From IMG/VR virus record IMGVR_UViG_3300032282_001564, positions 49,158 to 113,157 of that record: DNA of 64,000 nucleotides; one strand, 5' to 3'. Every line of letters begins with the position of its first letter. Position 1 is the stretch's first letter. The notes beneath the pieces are model-generated. The model searched no databases. It was not told where the DNA came from and saw nothing but the letters and a program-made list of their open reading frames with translations. This document shows, piece after piece, positions 34,588 through 60,079 of this stretch. Both the position numbers and the translations under genes were made by a program. Origin of the DNA: a virus.

Positions 34588-34740
34588 CTCGTGTATGTAA
34601 TACAGTATAGTATTTGCTATTATTTGAGCAATGGCAATGCTTGTGGCGACAAACATTTGCCCTGTGACTATATAACTAATTAGGAATGTACTAGTTGACC
34701 CAACTACTCGCCAGGTTAATGTTTTCCATACTGTTCTCAT
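34564..34740 (-). CDS. DUF2061-like small membrane protein, absent from the ORF track
   Basis: MRTVWKTLTWRVVGSTST...YYIHELAWNRLP; the K..(T/S)WR...HE..W pattern; coupled to the APS kinase. Confidence 0.75.
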   Translation of the reverse strand: MRTVWKTLTWRVVGSTSTFLISYIVTGQMFVATSIAIAQIIANTILYYIHELAWNRLP

Positions 34741-35528
34741 TTTAAGCCAAGTTCTCGACGTATATTAGTAGCACTAATAGCACCAATTTCCTCGTCTGGT
34801 ACTTCTTCTGCGTGTGTATATCCAACTCCGCGACCCCAACCAATGTGTACAATATTAGGTACTACCTGGATATCATATTGTCCTTGATATAGTGGATCTA
34901 GGTCACGCTTGATAAAGCTCTTGACCTTTTCGACTTCAAAAGGATTACTACCTTGCCAGCCCTGTACATCGCGTATCTGTATAATAACTTGTCCTGTACG
35001 TGCCAACAGGCGTTCAAACAACCAACGATGTCCATCGTGCCAAGGTTGCCAACGACCTAACATCTGTACAGTTTCTTTACGCCAATCAAACACAGGACGT
35101 CTACGATTATCAACAATATGGTCGGCAACAAAGTCTGCCCACTTAGTGGCATTCTGTTCATTAATACGGAAATCATAAATTTCTGGCTCAACAAACATTC
35201 GGTTTGTGTCGGCATATCGACCTTCCCGGATAGTGTCCATCCAGACTGTCCAGTCTGCTTTGAAATTATTACGCATTTCAACTAAAGGTGCAACAAAGTC
35301 GCATAATGCATAGTCGGTATTACAAGTAGCAGACAAATCGTACATACGCTTACTTTGACGAATACGACCTGCTTCGCTAAAATCCCAATCATCAAATTGT
35401 TTGCGTACTTCGTCAGCATTAAACCATGTTACGGTTTTGCCACAGTCTTCTAATAGCTTTTTTAGTTCTGTTGCTAGTGTTGTTTTACCAGAGCCAGGAA
35501 GGCCCATAATTAAAATACGTTGTGTCAT
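34737..35528 (-). CDS. Adenylyl-sulfate kinase-like domain fused to a cytidylyltransferase-like domain
   Basis: GLPGSGKT, 'NADEVR', 'DFSEAGR' (CysC-like); C-terminal 'GRWQPWHDGH' HxGH motif. Confidence 0.8.
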   Translation of the reverse strand: MTQRILIMGLPGSGKTTLATELKKLLEDCGKTVTWFNADEVRKQFDDWDFSEAGRIRQSKRMYDLSATCNTDYALCDFVAPLVEMRNNFKADWTVWMDTIREGRYADTNRMFVEPEIYDFRINEQNATKWADFVADHIVDNRRRPVFDWRKETVQMLGRWQPWHDGHRWLFERLLARTGQVIIQIRDVQGWQGSNPFEVEKVKSFIKRDLDPLYQGQYDIQVVPNIVHIGWGRGVGYTHAEEVPDEEIGAISATNIRRELGLK

Positions 35529-37000
35529 GAGTGTACCTTTACGTTATAGAGTTTTTCAAAGCGATCTGCATCTGCACGGTCATTGACCATTGGCTCGCCT
35601 TTAATGTTAAGACTTGTGTTTAGTAGCATTGGACAACCTGTTACAACGTACCATTTTTCTAGTAGTTCCCGGATCCCCGACCCGTCTCTGGAGACAGTTT
35701 GCACCCGACTAGTATTATCGTGATGAGTGATAGCAGGGAATAAAACCGGATGTTTACATACTCCCACGGACTGCATGTAAGGACTATCCACAAAACCACG
35801 TGGCATATCAAAATAATCGTGAACGTGCTCGGCCAGTATGACCGGGGCGAATGGTCTAAATTTTTGTCTTCGTTTGATTTCATTTACTCGATCCTTTATA
35901 TCTTGTCCTCGGGGGTCGGCGAGGAGACTTCTATTCCCAAGTGCCCTTGGCCCAAACTCTGCTTTACCGGAAGCAACTCCAACGATTTTATCGCGGAGTA
36001 AACTATCGAGGACGGCATTAACAGGGTATGGACCGCTAATCTCTCTACCGAGAAATGCATCTTTAAATTGGATCTTACCACCGTAGGCAAGAGCTCCAGC
36101 GCCAAGGCTAGAACCAGCATCGCCAGGATTAGGCATAATCCAAATTTTTTCAAAATATTCACCAAGGTTTCTATTAGCTAAACAATTTAGGGCAACACCG
36201 CCCATGTACACCAAATTTGTGCTCCAGCCAAAGTCCTTTGCCCGACGCATTACATTATATATCAAATTTTCTGCCAATGACTGTGCTGAACTGGCAATAT
36301 GCATGTCTTCGAAGCTTTCTGTGTAATCCCTAGCAATGCCAGTGTGCATATTCTCATTAAATCTTATGTCGTATTCGTTTTCTACTAAATCCATCTTCAT
36401 TACTGAGCTTATGTTTTTGCTACCATAAGCGGCCATGCCCATTAGTATGTATTCTTCTTCATTGGGTTTTAAGCCAACTTGTTGTGTCATAGCACTATAA
36501 AAGAGTCCTATGCTGTGTGGATAGCGTTGTCCCCATAAACGATGATATTGGGCTCGTCCATCTACGTAGTGAGCACCCCATATACTAATTGTGTCCCATT
36601 CCCCAATAGCATCAATTACAACTACTGTGGCCTTGTTAAATGTGCTTGTTTGAAATCCCGCGGCCGCATGGCTTAGGTGATGATTGTGACTACTATATTC
36701 AGGGAATTTTATACCGCCAAGTTGTTTGTTTAATACTTGCTTTAAGGTGATCTTATCCCACTCAACACCTTCACTGCTGTATAGTCTGCGTAATTGTTTT
36801 GCCCAAGGACGCTCATAATAAGCAACGTGTACAATAGGACTGTGTTCCATAACATCGTCAATTAGCCCCGATGCAAGATTGGCATCGTTTTTAATTTTGC
36901 TGTAACGCTCTGAGTGCCCGGCAAACAGTATCTCGCCGTATTCGTTAATTACAGTTGCGGAGGCATCATGAAACCCAGCCGAGATTCCTAATATGTTCAT
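35525..37000 (-). CDS. Carbamoyltransferase (NodU/CmcH family)
   Basis: 'HDAS', 'HHLSHAA', 'DAIGE', 'GGVALNC', 'EFGPRALGNRS', 'FRPFAP', 'LNTSLN'. Confidence 0.95.
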   Translation of the reverse strand: MNILGISAGFHDASATVINEYGEILFAGHSERYSKIKNDANLASGLIDDVMEHSPIVHVAYYERPWAKQLRRLYSSEGVEWDKITLKQVLNKQLGGIKFPEYSSHNHHLSHAAAGFQTSTFNKATVVVIDAIGEWDTISIWGAHYVDGRAQYHRLWGQRYPHSIGLFYSAMTQQVGLKPNEEEYILMGMAAYGSKNISSVMKMDLVENEYDIRFNENMHTGIARDYTESFEDMHIASSAQSLAENLIYNVMRRAKDFGWSTNLVYMGGVALNCLANRNLGEYFEKIWIMPNPGDAGSSLGAGALAYGGKIQFKDAFLGREISGPYPVNAVLDSLLRDKIVGVASGKAEFGPRALGNRSLLADPRGQDIKDRVNEIKRRQKFRPFAPVILAEHVHDYFDMPRGFVDSPYMQSVGVCKHPVLFPAITHHDNTSRVQTVSRDGSGIRELLEKWYVVTGCPMLLNTSLNIKGEPMVNDRADADRFEKLYNVKVHS

Positions 37001-43384: not shown

Positions 43385-43614
43385 TTCTTTAAACTCCATA
43401 TTAAATGTTCAATTTTTTCATGATATCTAAACTCAAATACAGCCTCCCCAGGCCCATGATACATTGCTGTACCTTCGTATACTTGACGCAACCATAACCA
43501 ACGTCCTGTTATGGCACTACGTTTAGGACACCATAAAAATCGTAGTCGCCAAATGGCACGATCGTAAAAATAATCGTATGTTTCTACGCCGGGAATATAT
43601 CCAACTCCCATCAT
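43381..43614 (-). CDS. Hypothetical protein
   Basis: Coupled ORF. Confidence 0.6.
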   Translation of the reverse strand: MMGVGYIPGVETYDYFYDRAIWRLRFLWCPKRSAITGRWLWLRQVYEGTAMYHGPGEAVFEFRYHEKIEHLIWSLKK

Positions 43615-44465
43615 GTGCCCCACTCATTCTTAAACAATGGCACCTGTAGTCGATCACTGTAACGTAAACCATTACGCATGGCAATATCTGCTACTGAACG
43701 ATTATTCAAAGCATATACGCTTTCAACACCGCCTACTGGCATTAAGTATACGTGACCTTTAAAGCCGGCTTTACGATAAGCGGCAATAGCACATTCTGCA
43801 TCAGCAAAATCTTGTTCGGTTGCAATTACAAATTTCAAGTATGCTGTACCAACTTGTTCGTATTCACATACAACTTCTGGAAGGATAGCATCTTCCCACT
43901 TTTCACCACTACATGGAAGTTTGGCACTAACACTAAACGTTAATTCTTTCTGCTCACATCCATATGTCCAATAATTGTCGATTAAATATTGTTTAAATTC
44001 TTCTGTTAGTTTTTGGGTTCCATTTGTTTCAAATGTAATTTCTTTAAGACCTTGCATTTTAGGATGACTTAACAAGTCTGGATAAGCACGTTGCCAACCT
44101 AACAAAGGCTCACCACCGGTAATAACCAAGTGTTCATCTTCCCAGTGATTGTGTGGCAGTATCTCCATAATACGATCTACGATTGCATCACTAGTAAGCA
44201 TTGGACTTAAATCTTTAAATGCAGGATGCCAACTTGCATAGCTATCACAACCTGTGCTAACTAGTGGCAAGTCTTCATACTTATTAAACATATGAGCAAC
44301 TTCGGCAATGTCTTCTGCTTCTCCACTTAGTTCACCACGTGGCATACCAAAGCCTGCACATTTAAAGTTACATCCAAATGTACGTAAGAACACACTTGGT
44401 ACACCCATGTAACGTCCTTCGCCTTGTATGCTGTAGAATAATTCTGCTATTTTGATTTTACTCAT
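43611..44465 (-). CDS. queE: 7-carboxy-7-deazaguanine synthase (radical SAM)
   Basis: 'ELFYSIQGEG..GVPSVFLRTFGCNFKC', third Cys after an insert ('GCDS'), 'ITGGEP', 'ETNG', 'RLQ'. Confidence 0.93.
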   Translation of the reverse strand: MSKIKIAELFYSIQGEGRYMGVPSVFLRTFGCNFKCAGFGMPRGELSGEAEDIAEVAHMFNKYEDLPLVSTGCDSYASWHPAFKDLSPMLTSDAIVDRIMEILPHNHWEDEHLVITGGEPLLGWQRAYPDLLSHPKMQGLKEITFETNGTQKLTEEFKQYLIDNYWTYGCEQKELTFSVSAKLPCSGEKWEDAILPEVVCEYEQVGTAYLKFVIATEQDFADAECAIAAYRKAGFKGHVYLMPVGGVESVYALNNRSVADIAMRNGLRYSDRLQVPLFKNEWGT

Positions 44466-45057: not shown

Positions 45058-45507
45058 TCATCCTTCGTATATAGCTGAGTTAGCACCGTGTTCTGCACAT
45101 TCTACCCTTACGCAATAACAACGGTTATTAGTCTTTTCTCGAATCAATTGATTGGCAAAGTTGAAAGCGTGTTCAGCAAACTTCTCTGCACCCACACCAT
45201 CAAAGATTCGTATCTCTGCTAAGTCTAGTGTTTCTAATTCACGAAACTTGGCCAAATGTGGATCTTGTCGATCCAACGCCAACTTGTGATCAAAGTTATC
45301 TTCTAACCATGCTTTGAGCAGTTTAAGTCCGCCAAAGTCTACTGCCCAGTTCTTGTTGTCTAATGTATCACACCCAAATGTGAATGTGAATGCTAGACTG
45401 TAACCGTGTAGCAAATGACAGTGACTATGGTCAGCATTGGGTTGACGGAATACAGCACTTAGCCCAATGTTGTGTCCATAGTGTTTTGTTGAATAAAATT
45501 TTGCCAT
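45058..45507 (-). CDS. queD: 6-carboxy-5,6,7,8-tetrahydropterin synthase
   Basis: 'CHLLHGY', 'VDFG', 'FDH', 'GAEKFA', 'EHGANSAIY'. Confidence 0.9.
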   Translation of the reverse strand: MAKFYSTKHYGHNIGLSAVFRQPNADHSHCHLLHGYSLAFTFTFGCDTLDNKNWAVDFGGLKLLKAWLEDNFDHKLALDRQDPHLAKFRELETLDLAEIRIFDGVGAEKFAEHAFNFANQLIREKTNNRCYCVRVECAEHGANSAIYEG

Positions 45508-45590
45508 TGTAATTCTCCTATGTTATTATAGCATAGGCCTGCAGAATTTGTATAGCGGGATGAATGCCAGAAAGGCCGCTGTTTGTGGGG
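45508..45590 (-). ncRNA. Candidate riboswitch (preQ1-I-like H-type pseudoknot plus SD-sequestering hairpin) in the queD leader
   Basis: RNA AGCGG-CCUUUCUGGCAUUCAUC-CCGCU-AUACAAAUUC-UGCAGG-CCUAUG...CAUAGG-AG...AUG. Confidence 0.55.
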
Positions 45591-45596
45591 ATAATA

Positions 45597-45752
45597 CTAT
45601 TTAGTATCATCCTGTTTTGTTTTTACTTCTTCTACTCGTTTTTCTTTGTAGACCGGTTCGGGCAAGTATGGAGTGATAACATAGTAGTTAGCACCATACC
45701 AACCGATGGCTGAAAAGAAACCTACTACAGTCCAAGTAGCAATTAATATCAT
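45597..45752 (-). CDS. Small membrane protein, absent from the ORF track
   Basis: MILIATWTVVGFFSAIGWYGANYYVI..., 51 aa, coupled to the upstream stop. Confidence 0.6.
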   Translation of the reverse strand: MILIATWTVVGFFSAIGWYGANYYVITPYLPEPVYKEKRVEEVKTKQDDTK

Positions 45753-46126
45753 TTTTTTTTCCTTTGAAATTCTAGATGAAATTTTAGTGCCGCACCACAG
45801 GAAAATTGTTCGCCTTTTTTAAACCGTAGTCCATTTAATTGAAATGGTTTTAGTACACGATCGCCATTCCACCAACTGCGTTGACATTCAATGTAGCCCA
45901 GTTCTTCTAACTGATTGCGTAAGGCTTTAAACTCTGGGCCGTCGTCACTGCCAGTTGAACTCCAGTTGCCAATACCCTTGAGTGCGTTAACAAGATCGTC
46001 GTCGGTAACAACGTCTTTGTTTAAATAGGAATTATACTCTTTATGTATAGTTAGATGCCACTCCAGTGTTTCATCTAGGTAAAACTGTTTTAACGCCACC
46101 ACTCCTCCCAAGGAAACACACACCAA
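45749..46126 (-). CDS. Hypothetical protein (start uncertain)
   Basis: 'LRNQLEELGYI...WWNGDRVLKPF'. Confidence 0.65.
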   Translation of the reverse strand: MVCVSLGGVVALKQFYLDETLEWHLTIHKEYNSYLNKDVVTDDDLVNALKGIGNWSSTGSDDGPEFKALRNQLEELGYIECQRSWWNGDRVLKPFQLNGLRFKKGEQFSCGAALKFHLEFQRKKK

Positions 46127-47860: not shown

Positions 47861-48159
47861 GACCGCAGTATTTCCATGCTAACAATTTGACCAATGCGTT
47901 CAGCAACTGGTTCACCGTCGGGAATTAAATGAGTGTGAGATGTATGTCTATCAGTTTTGTGATCGTAATTTGTCATTTGTACAACAACACCGCCATGGCA
48001 TGCCATAACTTTAAACGATAAGCCTTCAACATTAACACTATTGTCTCGCATAACTCGACTAGGTACAGCACAATCCTCACCAATGGTAAGGCTGTTACGA
48101 ATGTTCCGATTGTAGTCCCAACCCCATTTTAGAATAAAAGACCAAATTAATCTAATCAT
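47857..48159 (-). CDS. Hypothetical protein
   Basis: 100-aa ORF. Confidence 0.7.
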   Translation of the reverse strand: MIRLIWSFILKWGWDYNRNIRNSLTIGEDCAVPSRVMRDNSVNVEGLSFKVMACHGGVVVQMTNYDHKTDRHTSHTHLIPDGEPVAERIGQIVSMEILRS

Positions 48160-48929
48160 CGCGGTGCAAATTCCTGTTGTAATTTAATGTTATCAAAGAA
48201 CTCTTTCTTTGTATTCATGTCTGTTTCAAACGCACCTGTTAATACAGTAGTTTGTGTTAGACTGCTACCGGCCATAATACCGCGATTCTCACAGCATCCG
48301 TGTGTAGCTTGAATATAAACTGCTATGTTCTTTGAGCCTGTTGCTGTGGCAATTTCCCTAGCAATGTCATTACAAAGTTCCTCCTGGAGAGTACCACGTC
48401 GGGCACACCATTGGGCGATACGTGTGTATTTGCTAAGGCCAATAAGCCTATCAGCGGCAATGATACCAATGTAAGCAACACCAGTAACGGGCTGATGGTG
48501 ATGACTACACATACTACGAAGCTCACTGCGAACAACCAACATACCCTTGTAACCATCTTCTATCTCATTTGGAAAACTTGTTGCGTCTGGTACAGGATCA
48601 TAACGACCAGACATAATTTCATTAAAGTACATCTTAGCTAGTCGCTTTGCAGTACCTTTTGAGTTGGGATCATTTTCGCGATCAATTAGTAGTCTGTCGA
48701 GCACTACTTCAAATGCTTCTGTAGCTTCTTTAATTAAGATAGCTTTGTCTTCTTCGCTGACATAATCGCTAATGTTGTCACCGGCCCAAAAACGTTTCTT
48801 GTCACGTTTCATTTGGAAGCGAATAGCGTCACCGAGGTAACCTTCTTCGTAGCCTTTGTCGCTCATTTTCATTGCGGCATCTTCATACCCTGGATGGTAT
48901 GGCGCTTCTTCTACTAGTTTGTTTGTCAT
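48156..48929 (-). CDS. folE: GTP cyclohydrolase I
   Basis: 'SMCSHH', 'GLSKYTR', 'LQEEL', 'HGCCENRG'. Confidence 0.95.
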   Translation of the reverse strand: MTNKLVEEAPYHPGYEDAAMKMSDKGYEEGYLGDAIRFQMKRDKKRFWAGDNISDYVSEEDKAILIKEATEAFEVVLDRLLIDRENDPNSKGTAKRLAKMYFNEIMSGRYDPVPDATSFPNEIEDGYKGMLVVRSELRSMCSHHHQPVTGVAYIGIIAADRLIGLSKYTRIAQWCARRGTLQEELCNDIAREIATATGSKNIAVYIQATHGCCENRGIMAGSSLTQTTVLTGAFETDMNTKKEFFDNIKLQQEFAPR

Positions 48930-48970
48930 TGTTTCTCCGAGTTAATGCCGAGGATGGCTAGTTTTTTAAA

Positions 48971-48999
48971 ATTATATAATATCTAGACATTGAAGTCAA
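48971..48999 (-). promoter_or_regulatory. Sigma70 promoter of folE
   Basis: TTGACT (48999-48994), 17 bp, TATAAT (48976-48971). Confidence 0.75.
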
Positions 49000-49570
49000 T
49001 AGTTCGTAAGTCCGGATATTGATGATATTTAGGCTCTGGATCAACAAAAGGTAATTTTTCCAGACCTAAACTACAAGTTTCTAAAGTTGGACAGTAGTGA
49101 TATCCTTCTTCAAAAGTTGTTTGTTCTTCCCATGGGCTGATACGTAGGTCACGACCATCGCTACGCATACGACTAAACATCAAGTATTCAGCTTTATCGT
49201 CTAACAGTATTGCGCCAGCTTTGCCAATGCTTAATGGTTTACCGTGACCAAAACTTAGACATTGTAATTGCCCTGCACGATACATATTGGGACGTAGTAG
49301 TCTAGCACTATCCCAAATACGTGTGCCGTGGAAATGATACTCGCCGACAGATTGCCAATAATCTGTTTTAAAATTATAACTAATATCTAGTTTATGCATC
49401 AACTGCGGTATACTTAGATATGTAAAGGCTGTGAATTCGCAGTACTTATTTCTTTCGTGTCTAAAGCAAAGTTCTAGTGCGTGTGTGCATCCATCAGTAA
49501 CAACTGCATAAGGAGCACCGGTATAACGTGCTAGTTCTTCTTCGAACTGAAATAGTATGTCGTAGGTCAT
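48983..49570 (-). CDS. Short DegT/DnrJ-family PLP protein
   Basis: 'FEEELARYTGAPYAVVTDGCTHAL', 'WDSA', 'LSFGHGKPL..GKAGAIL'; only 195 aa. Confidence 0.75.
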   Translation of the reverse strand: MTYDILFQFEEELARYTGAPYAVVTDGCTHALELCFRHERNKYCEFTAFTYLSIPQLMHKLDISYNFKTDYWQSVGEYHFHGTRIWDSARLLRPNMYRAGQLQCLSFGHGKPLSIGKAGAILLDDKAEYLMFSRMRSDGRDLRISPWEEQTTFEEGYHYCPTLETCSLGLEKLPFVDPEPKYHQYPDLRTIDFNV

Positions 49571-49926
49571 TCTGATAAATGATCCTGTTTAATTTCTCTA
49601 ACTGGACAGTCAAGTCTTTCAGCAATGGCATTCTTAACACGTATACGTTGATTGTTCCAATCGCGTATAGCAATAGCACGACGTCCAATTTCTTCTAATG
49701 CTAGTTCTGCTTCACGTCCTGTTTTTAATTCAGCTTCTAAGTCCCAAATTTGATTGTGTATAGAAACTAGGTTAATATACAGATCCTCAATAGATTCCAT
49801 CTCTAATGGAATAGCTTGATTCATGTACCAAGTAAGTTCTTCAGCGTTAGCACCATTGGTGCGTTTAAATTTAACGTCAGCAATAGCTAACCGATCAATT
49901 AATTCAATAACAGGAAAATGTATCAT
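49567..49926 (-). CDS. Helical hypothetical protein (DUF4254/DUF6165-like)
   Basis: 'ELIDRLAI', 'IWDLE', 'NNQR'. Confidence 0.6.
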   Translation of the reverse strand: MIHFPVIELIDRLAIADVKFKRTNGANAEELTWYMNQAIPLEMESIEDLYINLVSIHNQIWDLEAELKTGREAELALEEIGRRAIAIRDWNNQRIRVKNAIAERLDCPVREIKQDHLSE

Positions 49927-50894
49927 TTGCGAGTGTACCACTTATAGGCTGAATCAATGATAGTTTTAATATCACTGTTAACCGGAGTCCATCCAAGTTC
50001 TTCTTGAGCACGGCTAGAATCAGCAACAAGCTCTGCTGGGTCGCCTGCACGAATAGGACCGTAGTTTACAAATGGTAATCCGTATTTTCCGTTAACATAG
50101 TCTACAATTTCTTTATTGCTTGTACCTTTGTTAGTACCTAGATTAAATGTTTCGCTGGAGATTTGTCCTTTACGAGCAAAGTAACCAACTGCACGTACAT
50201 GAGCTAGAGCAATGTCCCATACATGAACATAATCACGAATACAAGTACCATCCTCGGTATCGTAATCACAGCCGTTAATAGTAAATGCACGACCAGCGAT
50301 GCTGGCTTCTAGTACACGAGCAACAATATGCGTAGCTTCGGGTTCTTGGCCTAAGTCATGTGTAACAGGCATAGCACCTGCGGCATTAAAGTAACGGAAG
50401 CAAACAGTATTAATACCATAGGCACGACCGTAGTCTTGTAGTACCAGCTCGCAAGTGGCCTTAGTACTACCATATGGACTCAGTGGCTTTACTTCGTCGT
50501 ATTCTTTGATAGGCAAGCAGTCGGGTTCGCCATATACTGACGCACTAGAACTAAACATAATAATAGGTTTCTTGTCTAAGTTCTTGACCAAGTTCATCAA
50601 TGCAATAGTTTTAACTACATTATTTTCGTAGTACTCTGCAGGATCGGTCATCGAAGGACCGACTAAACTAGTGCCTGCACAATGAACAATAACGTCCGGA
50701 GCCAAATCGAAAATAGTGCTAAGACTAGCGTCACTAACAACATCTCCAATAAAAAATCCATCGATATCCTTTAATGTATGATCACGTTGAACACGATCAA
50801 TAACAAATACTTGATCACCGTTTTCTTTAAATGCACGAGCAACGTGGCTACCAATATAACCACATCCGCCAGTTACTACAATTTTCTTAGTCAT
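49923..50894 (-). CDS. galE: UDP-glucose 4-epimerase
   Basis: TGGCGYIG, 'SSSASVYG', YGSTK, 'RYFNAAGA', 'DGTCIRDYVHV'. Confidence 0.9.
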   Translation of the reverse strand: MTKKIVVTGGCGYIGSHVARAFKENGDQVFVIDRVQRDHTLKDIDGFFIGDVVSDASLSTIFDLAPDVIVHCAGTSLVGPSMTDPAEYYENNVVKTIALMNLVKNLDKKPIIMFSSSASVYGEPDCLPIKEYDEVKPLSPYGSTKATCELVLQDYGRAYGINTVCFRYFNAAGAMPVTHDLGQEPEATHIVARVLEASIAGRAFTINGCDYDTEDGTCIRDYVHVWDIALAHVRAVGYFARKGQISSETFNLGTNKGTSNKEIVDYVNGKYGLPFVNYGPIRAGDPAELVADSSRAQEELGWTPVNSDIKTIIDSAYKWYTRK

Positions 50895-55976: not shown

Positions 55977-56441
55977 TTAAATTACGATTGAATGTGTTGG
56001 ACGGGTGAGGTTATAAGAAATTGAGCATCCGTTTTCACCGTCCTCAGATACATCAATTGTTACTGCACGATTAGGGTAACGTGCGGCAATTTGTACGTAC
56101 AAGTCGTCAGCGATCATTTCACAGGACTTGTAGTTTAATTCTAAAACTCGATTTTCATTATAGGGACCGGTCCCACTGTAAAGGTTCTCGAGCCAGCGTT
56201 TGAATTGGATGAATTCGATATCTCTGTCATTATGGAAGACATCGATCCACACGCGGAAATGGAAAATGTGGCGATGAGGAGTAGCAAGAAAACTAACATC
56301 GTATTCATCACCTGTTGCCAGTAACGGATCGTTAGCGGCCGCCGGATAGCAGTGAATACCTTCTTTGCTAAACGTGACCCAGATTTGGCGTTGTGCCGCT
56401 TGTTGGATACGTTCAATTTTATCTCGTTGCTCTTGGTTCAT
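55977..56441 (-). CDS. QueD paralog (T-fold), DpdL-like candidate CDG decarboxylase
   Basis: LxxxHRHxF motif (LATPHRHIF), 'RDIEFIQFK', 'SCEMIA', 'VSEDGENG'. Confidence 0.75.
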   Translation of the reverse strand: MNQEQRDKIERIQQAAQRQIWVTFSKEGIHCYPAAANDPLLATGDEYDVSFLATPHRHIFHFRVWIDVFHNDRDIEFIQFKRWLENLYSGTGPYNENRVLELNYKSCEMIADDLYVQIAARYPNRAVTIDVSEDGENGCSISYNLTRPTHSIVI

Positions 56442-57146: not shown

Positions 57147-58748
57147 TTATTCTCCTAGGTGTTCAAGTTTTTCTTCATCAAAATCGGATTCTTCTGTTTG
57201 TTCTTCGTCAGCAACTTCAAACAAAGCATCAAACATTGTTTGACTGTTAAATGCTTTCTTACCTTTGAATCCGCGAGTGCCTACAATTTCCATCCAATAG
57301 TATTTGTAGTATTCAATGATGGCCATTGAATCTTCTTTGGTAGGAGCGGCAAATATTGCTTCAACTGCATCTTCAAACTTGACAAAGTCGCCGGTGCTAC
57401 GTTGCATCATTGCTGGGCGGGTGCCTGAATCAAAACGTCTATTTGCTTCTTGTACTGCTGTAATATGCATCCAGACATTGTGTCCCATTAAGAGAGCATA
57501 GCTAAAACTATCCCAAGATGTTTTACCCCATTTGCCGTTTTTATTAACGTCGGGCAATAGATCATACATTTCAGGATCTTTAAAGTTTTCTTCTGTAAGT
57601 ACAACACCAGACTTAGGTACGCCGGGCCTGTAAATACAAATATCTTTCATTTGTAACAAATCGCTAATAGGACTATCTTCCCATCGGGGGTATATTCCAT
57701 CTGCCACGACTCCTTGACTCCACTTGCGAGTGTCAACTGCGTAGGCTTTATTGTCAGCCGATGGAGCCATACGGTAACTCCATTTATCACCATCGGGGAA
57801 TACGTTTTCAAAGTAAACTTGCCCGTTAGCGGTGGCCAAAAAAGGGCTGGCACAATCGAAACTGATTGTAAATTGGGGATTGACATATTTCCTCACCATA
57901 CGTTGTATAACTGTAAGTAATACTGCCCATTCTAATTTGCTTGTACCCAAGAAGTGCATCCAATCGTGTACGCCTTCTTGTAGTAAGTTATCATACTTTA
58001 ATGTGATCAATCGTTTAAGAATTAACTCAACGTCACACATATTCTGCCCACCCATTGACCAACCGTTAAAGTGTGTGTCCGGATAAACTGTAGGATCGCA
58101 ATAGTGTTTCATTGTTTGATACCATTCTTCGGCATCTTTATGATTAGCACCTTGTAACACGTTTAGTACTTTCATGCCGCCATTTTTAACTCCTTTGCGA
58201 TTCTTCATATAAAAATCGTTGTTAAACTTTGTAGCGTCTACTGCTTCTTTAAGTGTACTAATACCGCATTTTTCGCTGGCATTCTTATCGTGAATAACCC
58301 ACGTCGGAATATCAAGAGTCATGCCATATTCAGCAATGCCGTCAAGCCAAGCTAAAACTTGTTCGCGTTTTTTCTGAGCTTTCGGGCATCCTGAACCAGC
58401 TTTCCAATCTCCTTCCCATAGCCCTTTGGCAATCTGGAATCCACCAGAGTCGCCTAAGACTAGTGTGTTGGGATCTCGATTTCGAACCATGTCCTCGGAC
58501 CAATCTTGTTTGGTCAAGTCCAGGTTAGCATGGCCGCCGGAGTAAAGCGACCATTTATATGGGAACAGGGCTTGGTGTGCATTAAGCCAATTCATCTGTT
58601 CCATATCCGTTATACCCTGCGGAAAACGTGCAGGGTCTACATATTCTTCGTTACGTTGTTTGCCTACAAAGGTAGCATAGAAGCCGCTAATAGCCGGCAA
58701 AAATATTGCATAGTCGTTTTGTTTAGCAGTTAAGTTATCTTGGGTCAT
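57147..58748 (-). CDS. dpdA: TGT-fold transglycosylase (DpdA family, inserts 7-deazaguanine bases into DNA)
   Basis: 'GDSGGFQ', 'LDIP', 'VLQG', 'HFLG', 'SFDCASP'; no CxCxxC Zn site; located with folE/queD/queE. Confidence 0.8.
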   Translation of the reverse strand: MTQDNLTAKQNDYAIFLPAISGFYATFVGKQRNEEYVDPARFPQGITDMEQMNWLNAHQALFPYKWSLYSGGHANLDLTKQDWSEDMVRNRDPNTLVLGDSGGFQIAKGLWEGDWKAGSGCPKAQKKREQVLAWLDGIAEYGMTLDIPTWVIHDKNASEKCGISTLKEAVDATKFNNDFYMKNRKGVKNGGMKVLNVLQGANHKDAEEWYQTMKHYCDPTVYPDTHFNGWSMGGQNMCDVELILKRLITLKYDNLLQEGVHDWMHFLGTSKLEWAVLLTVIQRMVRKYVNPQFTISFDCASPFLATANGQVYFENVFPDGDKWSYRMAPSADNKAYAVDTRKWSQGVVADGIYPRWEDSPISDLLQMKDICIYRPGVPKSGVVLTEENFKDPEMYDLLPDVNKNGKWGKTSWDSFSYALLMGHNVWMHITAVQEANRRFDSGTRPAMMQRSTGDFVKFEDAVEAIFAAPTKEDSMAIIEYYKYYWMEIVGTRGFKGKKAFNSQTMFDALFEVADEEQTEESDFDEEKLEHLGE

Positions 58749-59353: not shown

Positions 59354-60079
59354 TTACTTACTTTGTGCTGGTAACAAATAATGATAAACAGCAAGTCCAG
59401 AGTCCACAGTAATTTCTGCTACACCCTCGTCACTGATCTTAAATGTTTTGTCTCCTGGCAAGCTCAAGATGCTGTTGACTACAGCAACTGGCCAATATAG
59501 TTGTTTGCTAAGACTGCCACCACACCCTGGAGCAAAAGTAAAATTGCCAGCGTGGCTACTATGGTCACCGAAGTAAAACTTCAAATCACCATTTTCAGTC
59601 TTTGTGCTGAATGCAGTAGCATCACTATGTGCCATGCTTTGGAATTTAAGTTTCTGAATACTTTGTGCGGTTGGCACAATACTAACACCCCAGTTAATTT
59701 GTTTTTTCATTACAACATTTTTAAGCTGGTCGTTAATAATAGCCGCACTCATAAAGCGATAGTTATTTTTAAAGTCGCCTGTTTTGTTTTCAAAGTCAAT
59801 ACCACTTGGGTCCGTACCTTGTTTGGTTACTGTAATTTTAGCACTTTCTTTATATTCGGGAATATTAAGAATAGTGTTTAGTCGATCTAGGTTTGGCATA
59901 CCAAATGTGCCAACAAAGTCTGCTACCGGTGCTTTAAATTCTGCATTTAAAATAACAGTTTTAGTCTGTTGATCAAAAGCGTTAATAGTTGTTTCTGTTG
60001 ATGTGCCTGTAATTTTAATTAAGTTAATTACATTCAAGCCATATGTATGTTGTACAATATCTTTTAAGTGGTCAAGCAT
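59354..60079 (-). CDS. DNA polymerase sliding clamp-like protein (gp45-like)
   Basis: 241 aa near PolB; 'GTFGMPNL..L', 'YRFM', 'YHYLLPA' ending. Confidence 0.6.
   Translation of the reverse strand: MLDHLKDIVQHTYGLNVINLIKITGTSTETTINAFDQQTKTVILNAEFKAPVADFVGTFGMPNLDRLNTILNIPEYKESAKITVTKQGTDPSGIDFENKTGDFKNNYRFMSAAIINDQLKNVVMKKQINWGVSIVPTAQSIQKLKFQSMAHSDATAFSTKTENGDLKFYFGDHSSHAGNFTFAPGCGGSLSKQLYWPVAVVNSILSLPGDKTFKISDEGVAEITVDSGLAVYHYLLPAQSK

Follow-up and report, generated by a model that had tools for sequence, protein, structure and literature searches.

Introduction

Class I preQ1 (7-aminomethyl-7-deazaguanine) riboswitches, hereafter preQ1-I, are the described RNAs that come closest to an element in the leader of a queD-like phage gene, which is the subject of this work. 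Members of the class bind preQ1 or preQ0, turn expression off, and control genes for queuosine or preQ1 synthesis or transport. The phage element lies in a 64,000-nucleotide stretch of DNA, positions 49,158 to 113,157 of IMG/VR virus record IMGVR_UViG_3300032282_001564, which is referred to as the window and in whose numbering all positions are given. In its H-type pseudoknot, preQ1-I has a canonical P1 and, in the minor groove of this helix, an A-rich L3; the G-C pair conserved at the top of P1 is the floor of the ligand pocket (PMC11625349). Before the 3' strand of P1 stands a dinucleotide, UC in type I and AC in types II and III, whose C pairs with the ligand; L1 starts with UU (types I and III) or UC (type II), and the short P2 includes Shine-Dalgarno (SD) nucleotides (PMC11625349). 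The preQ1-II and preQ1-III riboswitches resemble the phage motif in being pseudoknotted aptamers on queuosine-pathway leaders, and the ribosome-binding site (RBS) of class III lies away from the pocket, but their folds are much larger and have extra helices. Tetrahydrofolate (THF) riboswitches sense pterins, and the chemistry that they recognise would be similar if the phage ligand were a pterin; their folds differ from the phage knot.

On the enzymatic side, the 2'-deoxy-7-deazaguanosine (dDG) pathway of Cellulophaga phage phiST comprises FolE, QueD, QueE, DpdL, and DpdA, without QueC (PMC10516641). The window is alike in encoding FolE, a QueD-like protein, a QueE-like protein, and a protein with the DpdL signature, and no QueC. 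It differs in that its DpdA is a lead from an embedding search only, and phiST differs from the window in that its queD has neither a leader nor the motif (at most 9 bits with the covariance model R1 described below). We know of no RNA regulator described for the phiST-type dDG pathway. Our literature searches returned nothing relevant on a class IV preQ1, preQ0, 7-carboxy-7-deazaguanine (CDG), or 7-deazaguanine riboswitch, and no paper describing the queD-leader motif.

Judged by comparison of related leaders, the feature is a genuine, abundant, and phage-restricted structured RNA. As a whole, it is best explained, with moderate confidence, as an RNA switch acting in cis, with a compact H-type pseudoknot at its core. 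Most likely the element is a novel variant of riboswitch, whose fold is related to preQ1-I and which would be wired ON in this window. Covarying helices, invariant junction nucleotides, a position in the 5' untranslated region, and a platform sharing nucleotides with the aptamer, which count among the marks of a riboswitch, are found here.

Pseudoknot in the queD leader

The gene behind the leader encodes a QueD-like T-fold protein (PF01242, 1.5e-13; phrog_2389, 3.8e-40) and lies in a part of the window where the minus strand carries all genes. An initial annotation of this DNA had assigned it a non-coding leader, and the gap, located 3' of a 51-residue open reading frame (ORF), indeed measures 89 nucleotides (nt) (45508–45596, minus strand). 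On the mRNA it reads UAUUAUCCCCACAAAC-AGCGG-CCUUUCUGGCAUUCAUC-CCGCU-AUACAAAUUCUGCAGGCCUAUGCUAUAAUAACAUAGGAGAAUUACA-AUG. The source is a 113-kb virus record with an estimated completeness of 31%. We regard it as part of an uncultured jumbo phage, because its relatives reach 222–357 kb at 96–100% completeness.

45058–45507, minus strand: queD-like gene, 149 residues, motif CxxxHGY (PF01242, phrog_2389)
45515–45519, minus strand: SD sequence AGGAG (sequence reading)

The comparative evidence indicates that positions 45580–45536 of the minus strand fold as an H-type pseudoknot composed of the following segments.

45576–45580, minus strand: P1 5' strand AGCGG, pairing with 45554–45558 (97–98% of cells paired)
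45569–45575, minus strand: L1 CCUUUCU (column counts, 92-sequence alignment)
45561–45568, minus strand: P2 5' strand GGCAU-U-CA, pairing with 45536–45543
45559–45560, minus strand: L2 UC (U45560, C45559), the C being at the position of the preQ1-I specificity C (PMC11625349)
45554–45558, minus strand: P1 3' strand CCGCU (covariation)
45544–45553, minus strand: L3, A-rich tail AUACAAAUUC, 10 nt, family consensus WWANANAYUC
45536–45543, minus strand: P2 3' strand UG-C-AGGCC, its last two C's common to the anti-SD hairpin

P1 closes the 17-nt loop CCUUUCUGGCAUUCAUC, has an invariant G-C as its top pair, and is followed by a tail that starts with AUACAAA. Among the 92 distinct sequences of the alignment, the first nucleotide of L1 is A in 36, U in 32, and C in 24, and never G, so the C that had been taken for an anomaly at this place is ordinary within the family. 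The second nucleotide is C in all 92 and the third is U in 91, after which comes a spacer of variable length. In L2, the nucleotide directly 5' of the P1 3' strand is C in 91 sequences and the one before it is U (64), C (15), or A (13). L3 has three invariant or nearly invariant A's and an invariant UC. P2 spans eight positions with a U·C mismatch (U in 88, C in 92); its 5' strand lies directly 5' of L2, and its 3' strand begins within a conserved UCYGC block. The window copy pairs G45568-C45536, G45567-C45537, C45566-G45538, U45564-A45540, C45562-G45542, and A45561-U45543, and carries one A·G mismatch in addition to the conserved U·C. The tail also keeps in step with P1: position 4 of L3 is a pyrimidine when the middle P1 pair is C-G and an A when it is A-U or U-A. 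Mutual information of the middle pair, columns 5 and 33 of the 92-sequence alignment, with L3 positions 4 and 6, columns 39 and 41, is 0.94 and 0.74 (relatedness not controlled), which is the pattern that would be expected of a minor-groove base triple.

Covariation of the two helices

The pairing was evaluated in two alignments. A1 is a MAFFT alignment of 58 distinct copies, in which pairs were counted for P1 and P2. A2 contains 92 distinct phage copies aligned by R1, and P2 was not fitted to it because R1 encodes P1 only. In the control the 3' partner was slid by 1–3 columns. The paired cells amount to 87.3% in A1 versus 36–48% after sliding, and to 87.9% in A2 versus 29–47%. None of 500 shuffles reached the covariation score of A1, and the score of A2 is 0.476 versus 0.146 ± 0.011 for shuffles. 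Changes on both sides occur in 11 of the 13 pairs, and in P1 four of the five pairs have double changes across relatives. P1 appears as AGCGG/CCGCU, ACCGG/CCGGU, UGCGG/CCGCA, AGUGG/CCACU, or AGAGG/CCUCU. The clearest P2 signal is the change of UCA...UCUGC to UCG...UCCGC, by which an A-U becomes a G-C pair, and the distal P2 pairs vary as GGCG:CGCC, GGCAU:AUGCC, GGUG:CACC, GAUG:CAUC, and GACGC:GUGUC. Taken together, well over 100 distinct leaders of phages keep the fold through compensatory changes.

The covariation check that the initial annotation had proposed thus came out positive for P1 and the pseudoknot helix in both sets, and its P1 (AGCGG/CCGCU closing the loop, with the A-rich AUACAAA after it) is borne out. 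Its P2 was drawn in another register, with CCU and GCA of the loop pairing with UGCAGG; the conserved P2 is GGCAU-U-CA with UG-C-AGGCC. Nor is this helix short as described, having eight positions and no SD nucleotides inside.

Comparison with class I preQ1 riboswitches

Point by point, the phage motif shares with preQ1-I the H-type pseudoknot, a 5-bp P1 with a top G-C, an A-rich L3 of about 8–10 nt, UC or AC with an invariant C before the P1 3' strand, a C as the second L1 nucleotide, and the position in front of a 7-deazaguanine pathway gene. It differs in P2 (eight positions with a U·C mismatch versus about four steps), in L1 (4–9 nt with a free first base, A, U, or C), and in L2, which has only 2–3 nt. 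Furthermore, its SD lies outside P2, it has no terminator of the kind into which a class I P2 may lead, its wiring points to ON, its conserved UCYGC block has no preQ1-I counterpart, and it is found only in phages, in genomes without QueC. We therefore file the motif as preQ1-I-like in architecture and not as a member: its P1, L2, and L3 agree with the class, and its P2 and L1 do not.

The Rfam searches give the same picture. RF00522 (gathering threshold 39 bits) has no match at gathering and none at E≤10 on 45300–45900; its best matches in the whole record lie elsewhere and score at most 16.2 bits. It has no match at the motif in 16 related loci or in five motif-bearing metagenome-assembled genomes (MAGs). 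The leader has no match at E≤10 to RF01054 (preQ1-II), to RF02680 (preQ1-III), or to any other Rfam family, the THF families included. Hence, of the class I layout that had been proposed, the P1, the NC dinucleotide, and the A-rich tail stand, while P2, L1, and the Rfam models speak otherwise. If a ligand is bound, the motif would represent an uncatalogued riboswitch class, seen so far in viruses only and placed on a pathway of 7-deazaguanine DNA modification. The preQ1-I scaffold would then have been rebuilt with a long P2, a remote RBS, ON logic, and probably another ligand.

Distribution of the motif

A protein search with QueD returned 80 IMG/VR loci at 85–95% identity, and the leader element recurs in nearly all of them. 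In five large relatives (222–357 kb), R1 detects a single strong copy each, located at queD. A loose IUPAC pattern run on IMG/VR gave 72 true motifs among the 80 matches listed, with 30–61 bits, and each full-scoring copy among the matches listed precedes a QueD-like gene. The subfamilies behind the motif include proteins of 157–195 residues that are 35–48% identical to the window protein. Since the motif precedes proteins so divergent, the RNA is better conserved than the protein that it precedes. All QueD-like proteins behind the motif have CxxxHGY; the QueD signature is given as CxxxHGH (PMC10516641).

A stricter pattern matched five times in 185,579 GTDB genomes. All five are true motifs and all are in MAGs, four of Bacteroidota and one of Nitrospira. 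A bacterial origin of these copies was rejected: a phage-type polB, 57–86% identical to that of the window, co-occurs in all five, and in a Haliscomenobacter MAG the polB (72% identical) is on the motif's own 183-kb contig, L215. We read the matches as binned phage contigs, which gives a weak hint of Bacteroidota hosts. On L215 the genes that flank the QueD-like gene behind the motif encode FolE, a HIT protein, a methyltransferase, a GT2 glycosyltransferase, and two radical SAM proteins of large size, of which one is B12-binding; the downstream pathway differs.

Among cultured phages, BLAST with 1.2 kb of the locus and with the 51-nt aptamer gave no match. R1 with filters off scored at most 9 bits on the queD regions of BUCT-ZZ01, phiST, phiSM, immuto_2-6A, MA9V-3, and Pan1, and most of these six regions have no leader at all. 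Candidate extra copies in the window genome reach at most 14.6 bits and were treated as chance; one such match (59913–59953) lies inside a gene on the opposite strand. Locus L107 has a degenerate second copy (27 bits; L107:6–54, the intact one being L107:1000–1048) in which UCUGC has become UUCGC. Behind it stands a methyltransferase-like gene of 229 residues, and the intact queD copy follows 1 kb downstream.

Expression platform and proposed switch direction

We next describe how the knot could act on the RBS. In the window the SD is outside P2 and starts 16 nt after it. The hairpin CCUAUG (45537–45532) with CAUAGG (45522–45517), noted already in the initial annotation, can form and cover the AGG of the SD. 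It is part of a larger fold of three parts. In the first, GCUAU of the P1 3' strand (45556–45552) pairs with AUGGC at the start codon (45507–45503); in the second, AAUUCU at the end of L3 and the start of the P2 3' strand (45548–45543) pairs with AGAAUU of the SD and spacer (45516–45511); CCUAUG with CAUAGG at the SD is the third.

45517–45537, minus strand: anti-SD hairpin CCUAUG-cuauaauaa-CAUAGG, −5.9 kcal/mol, 6 bp
45503–45556, minus strand: full OFF-state fold, a three-part helix, nested minimum free energy (MFE) −17.7 kcal/mol

Once P2 takes the two C's, the hairpin changes from −5.9 kcal/mol (6 bp) to +0.3 kcal/mol (4 bp). The SD is unpaired with a probability of 0.00–0.04 in the free leader and of 0.78–0.97 when the knot nucleotides are withdrawn, and the RBS makes 13.3 expected pairs with the 3' half of the aptamer versus 3.0 after that half is shuffled. 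The strand sequestering the SD and AUG shares nucleotides with the covarying P2, and formation of the knot should therefore free the RBS. In the model that we propose, the three-part helix would bury the RBS when no knot is present; when the knot is stabilised, the helix would lose its partner strand and queD would be translated. The knot should thus switch queD translation ON in this window, the reverse of the former suggestion that the ligand-bound state turns translation off.

Behind the one conserved aptamer, the relatives have four types of expression platform. Their wiring was scored on the whole RBS, as a score on the SD only misses the sequestration of the start codon in types b and c.

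Platform type a (this window), 46 distinct leaders: RBS:aptamer pairs 6.3 versus 3.8 shuffled; hairpin overlaps P2
Platform type b, 40 distinct leaders: RBS:aptamer pairs 4.0 versus 3.3 shuffled
Platform type c, 16 distinct leaders: RBS:aptamer pairs 4.0 versus 2.7 shuffled
Platform type d, 28 distinct leaders: RBS:aptamer pairs 4.3 versus 4.7 shuffled; no excess

In 28 of 32 type b leaders, GAUGG at the start codon has as its pairing partner the end of the P2 3' strand together with RUC; RNAalifold found this start-codon helix, with no double-sided covariation. In type c, inspection shows at the start codon a CAAUGGCA that is a possible pairing partner of UGCCAUUG. The SD of type d is only about 9 nt 3' of the knot. 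According to these scores, types a–c are probably wired ON.

The opposite wiring was also considered, namely a class I preQ1-type OFF switch whose free state is opened by a GGCCU/AGGCC helix that breaks both the knot and the SD hairpin. The layout does resemble preQ1-I, the GGCCU/AGGCC helix that had been predicted is possible in this copy (−5.8 kcal/mol), and the knot, whose end lies 16 nt 5' of the SD, could sterically hinder the ribosome. That helix, however, can form in only 3 of the 92 distinct relatives, the covarying P2 uses the very CC that the SD hairpin needs, and RF00522 fails even at E≤10. Four near-complete relatives moreover have neither QueC nor a Pfam-type tRNA-guanine transglycosylase (TGT). 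An OFF switch of this kind is hardly credible for the queD leader.

Promoters around and inside the leader

Sigma-70 matches of at least 10/12 occur in 37 of 130 distinct upstream contexts, 14 of them being a perfect TTGACA-N16–18-TATAAT; other contexts have T4-late-like TATAAATA variants. The sigma-70 matches end 5–24 nt before P1, with a mode of 7 nt. Because the promoter ends about 7 nt before P1, the transcript would start at the foot of P1 in those phages. The window's own upstream region has no strong promoter match, and its queD leader may be read through from the upstream genes.

A transcript start 0–2 nt before P1 in many relatives is what one would expect if the knot were a ligand-independent 5'-end structure, guarding the mRNA from 5'-end-dependent decay or fixing the translation level, and type d, which has no competing RBS pairing, fits such a role too. 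Against it, a hairpin that serves stability would not require the invariant unpaired nucleotides (the C of L1, the C of L2, and the A's and UC of L3), the motif keeps exclusively to QueD-like genes within genomes of 220–360 kb, and types a–c do show competing RBS pairing. This makes a purely structural role quite improbable.

Inside the leader there is a second promoter-like site, and no intrinsic terminator was found after the knot.

45525–45554, minus strand: internal sigma-70-like promoter site TATACA, 18 nt, TGcTATAAT, 10/12 with an extended −10

Its −35 is within L3 and its −10 within the hairpin loop, so that the arms CCTATG...CATAGG flank the −10. A site of at least 9/12 is present in 44 of 46 type a leaders and in 0 of 83 others. 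Judged from this match, some queD transcripts may start 3' of the aptamer and escape the switch. The embedded site suggests a two-transcript design, which to our knowledge has not been described for riboswitches.

The downstream half of type a could even be chiefly a DNA element, a sigma-70 promoter with a palindromic operator for a repressor, with the knot being a relic or present in read-through transcripts only. The near-universal promoter-like match with its extended −10 in type a and its absence elsewhere agree with this, and so do the palindrome arms, in which no variation occurs, in contrast to P1, P2, and the loops. Yet type a leaders on their own have 82.3% of P1/P2 cells paired versus 30–50% after sliding. 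Because P1 and P2 covary within type a alone, the RNA is kept under selection there, and types b–d keep the knot without such a promoter. We consider a DNA element very unlikely as the main function.

A smaller element in the folE leader

A second leader of the pathway, that of folE, carries a related element.

48156–48929, minus strand: folE (GTP cyclohydrolase I; PF01227, 5.4e-39)
48971–48999, minus strand: folE promoter-like site TTGACT, 17 nt, TATAAT (sequence reading)
48935–48958, minus strand: folE-leader mini-pseudoknot, P1 GCC/GGC, loop AUCCUC, tail AUUAACUC, then SD GGAG

After the promoter the leader reads AAAACUA-GCC-AUCCUC-GGC-AUUAACUC-GGAG-AAACA-AUG, and covariance model R2 scores it at 42.3 bits. 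The stem (3–6 bp) covaries in three of four pairs across 43 distinct relatives, appearing as GUC/GAC, GAC/GUC, GCC/GGC, GGCA/UGCC, or GGG/CCC. Neither the loop AUCCNC nor the tail ..UAAC(A)UCGGAG varies in the relatives, and the UCC of the loop is complementary to the GGA of the SD, both being invariant. Viewed as a pseudoknot, the element has L2 AC/UC, an L3 ending in AAYUC, and UCC:GGA as P2. From this resemblance we read it as a smaller knot with the core of the queD knot, in which the SD itself would serve as P2 and the wiring would be OFF. The pairing of the two motifs is frequent and not obligatory.

One core on two leaders of one pathway is also what a protein-binding translational operator would look like, in which both genes would be coordinated through binding of the shared core by QueD itself or by an RNA-binding regulator that the phage encodes, without any small molecule. 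The loops are strongly conserved in their sequence, a trait of protein sites too, and the motif is phage-restricted, which fits a phage-encoded partner; both lend some weight to it. Three points detract from it: the P1/L2/L3 side agrees in each point with an aptamer known to bind a small molecule, QueD-like proteins only 35–48% identical argue against autoregulation by QueD, and no candidate regulator gene stands consistently beside the motif. An operator is unlikely on this evidence, and we continue with the RNA switch as the preferred explanation.

Evidence weighing against the proposed switch

Several observations count against the RNA switch or its ON direction. The nested MFE of the queD leader is not unusual (z = −0.82). 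The ON wiring, strong in this window, is moderate in types a–c and absent in type d, and the anti-SD arms are invariant in all 46 type a leaders, so the OFF fold has no covariation. Withdrawal of nucleotides can only raise accessibility, so the accessibility test is biased to ON, and it treats base pairing without steric effects. With the internal promoter-like site in 44 of 46 type a leaders, transcripts could start downstream of the aptamer. It is also uncommon for a biosynthetic gene to be under an ON switch. As to folE, its P2 is invariant and hence unproven, and the R2 motif is present in only two of five genomes with the queD motif, namely this genome and one of four complete relatives.

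Pathway genes and candidate ligands

Two further genes of the deazaguanine route are recognisable in the window.

43611–44465, minus strand: queE-like radical SAM gene (phrog_2076, 2e-49)
55977–56441, minus strand: DpdL-like protein, 154 residues, LATPHRHIF (translation, phrog_17812)

LxxxHRHxF is the signature of the proposed CDG decarboxylase DpdL (PMC10516641). BLASTP detected no similarity between the DpdL-like protein and the QueD of the window. The initial annotation saw no queC in this DNA, and four relatives that are 96–100% complete likewise have no QueC and no TGT of the Pfam type (PF01702). Because the gene set fits the QueC-less 7-deazaguanine route of phiST, preQ1 is an unlikely ligand, and by this analogy a ligand other than preQ1 is a reasonable assumption.

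We propose that a small heterocycle with a guanine-like face is the ligand for which the knot forms an aptamer; as in preQ1-I, it would stack between P1 and P2 and pair with the L2 cytosine. Among 7-deazaguanine bases, CDG and 7-deazaguanine are possible ligands. More speculatively, the most economical ligand would be a pterin of the dihydroneopterin type, the product of FolE and substrate of QueD. If one ligand represses FolE and induces QueD, it would be the compound between them, and a pterin would offer the L2 cytosine the same pairing face as guanine. In its full form, this idea holds that dihydroneopterin triphosphate, or a pterin close to it, is sensed by a single small pseudoknot fold that comes in two sizes, and that folE is thereby turned OFF and queD ON; we put it forward tentatively, as a possibility that is more doubtful than probable. 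Were it true, the phages would hold their pterin pool steady while diverting GTP into 7-deazaguanine in DNA, and a phage-only riboswitch class related to preQ1-I would use a new ligand with opposite logic on two genes. Thanks to the accompanying folE motif, this specific ligand hypothesis lends itself to a direct test, and the queD knot would provide a natural sensor, 45 nt long, of a pterin or a deazapurine.

The window also encodes a cupin, a MazG-like protein, and a phosphoribosyltransferase. A 533-residue ORF (57147–58748, minus strand) has no Pfam, PHROG, or PDB sequence match; an embedding search places it near viral TGT-like (0.93) and DpdA (0.88) clusters, which makes a transglycosylase a lead only. 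Genes for sugar tailoring are interleaved with the deazaguanine genes (34737–37000 and 48983–50894), and they encode a carbamoyltransferase, an epimerase/dehydratase, a DegT fragment, and a sulfotransferase-like protein.

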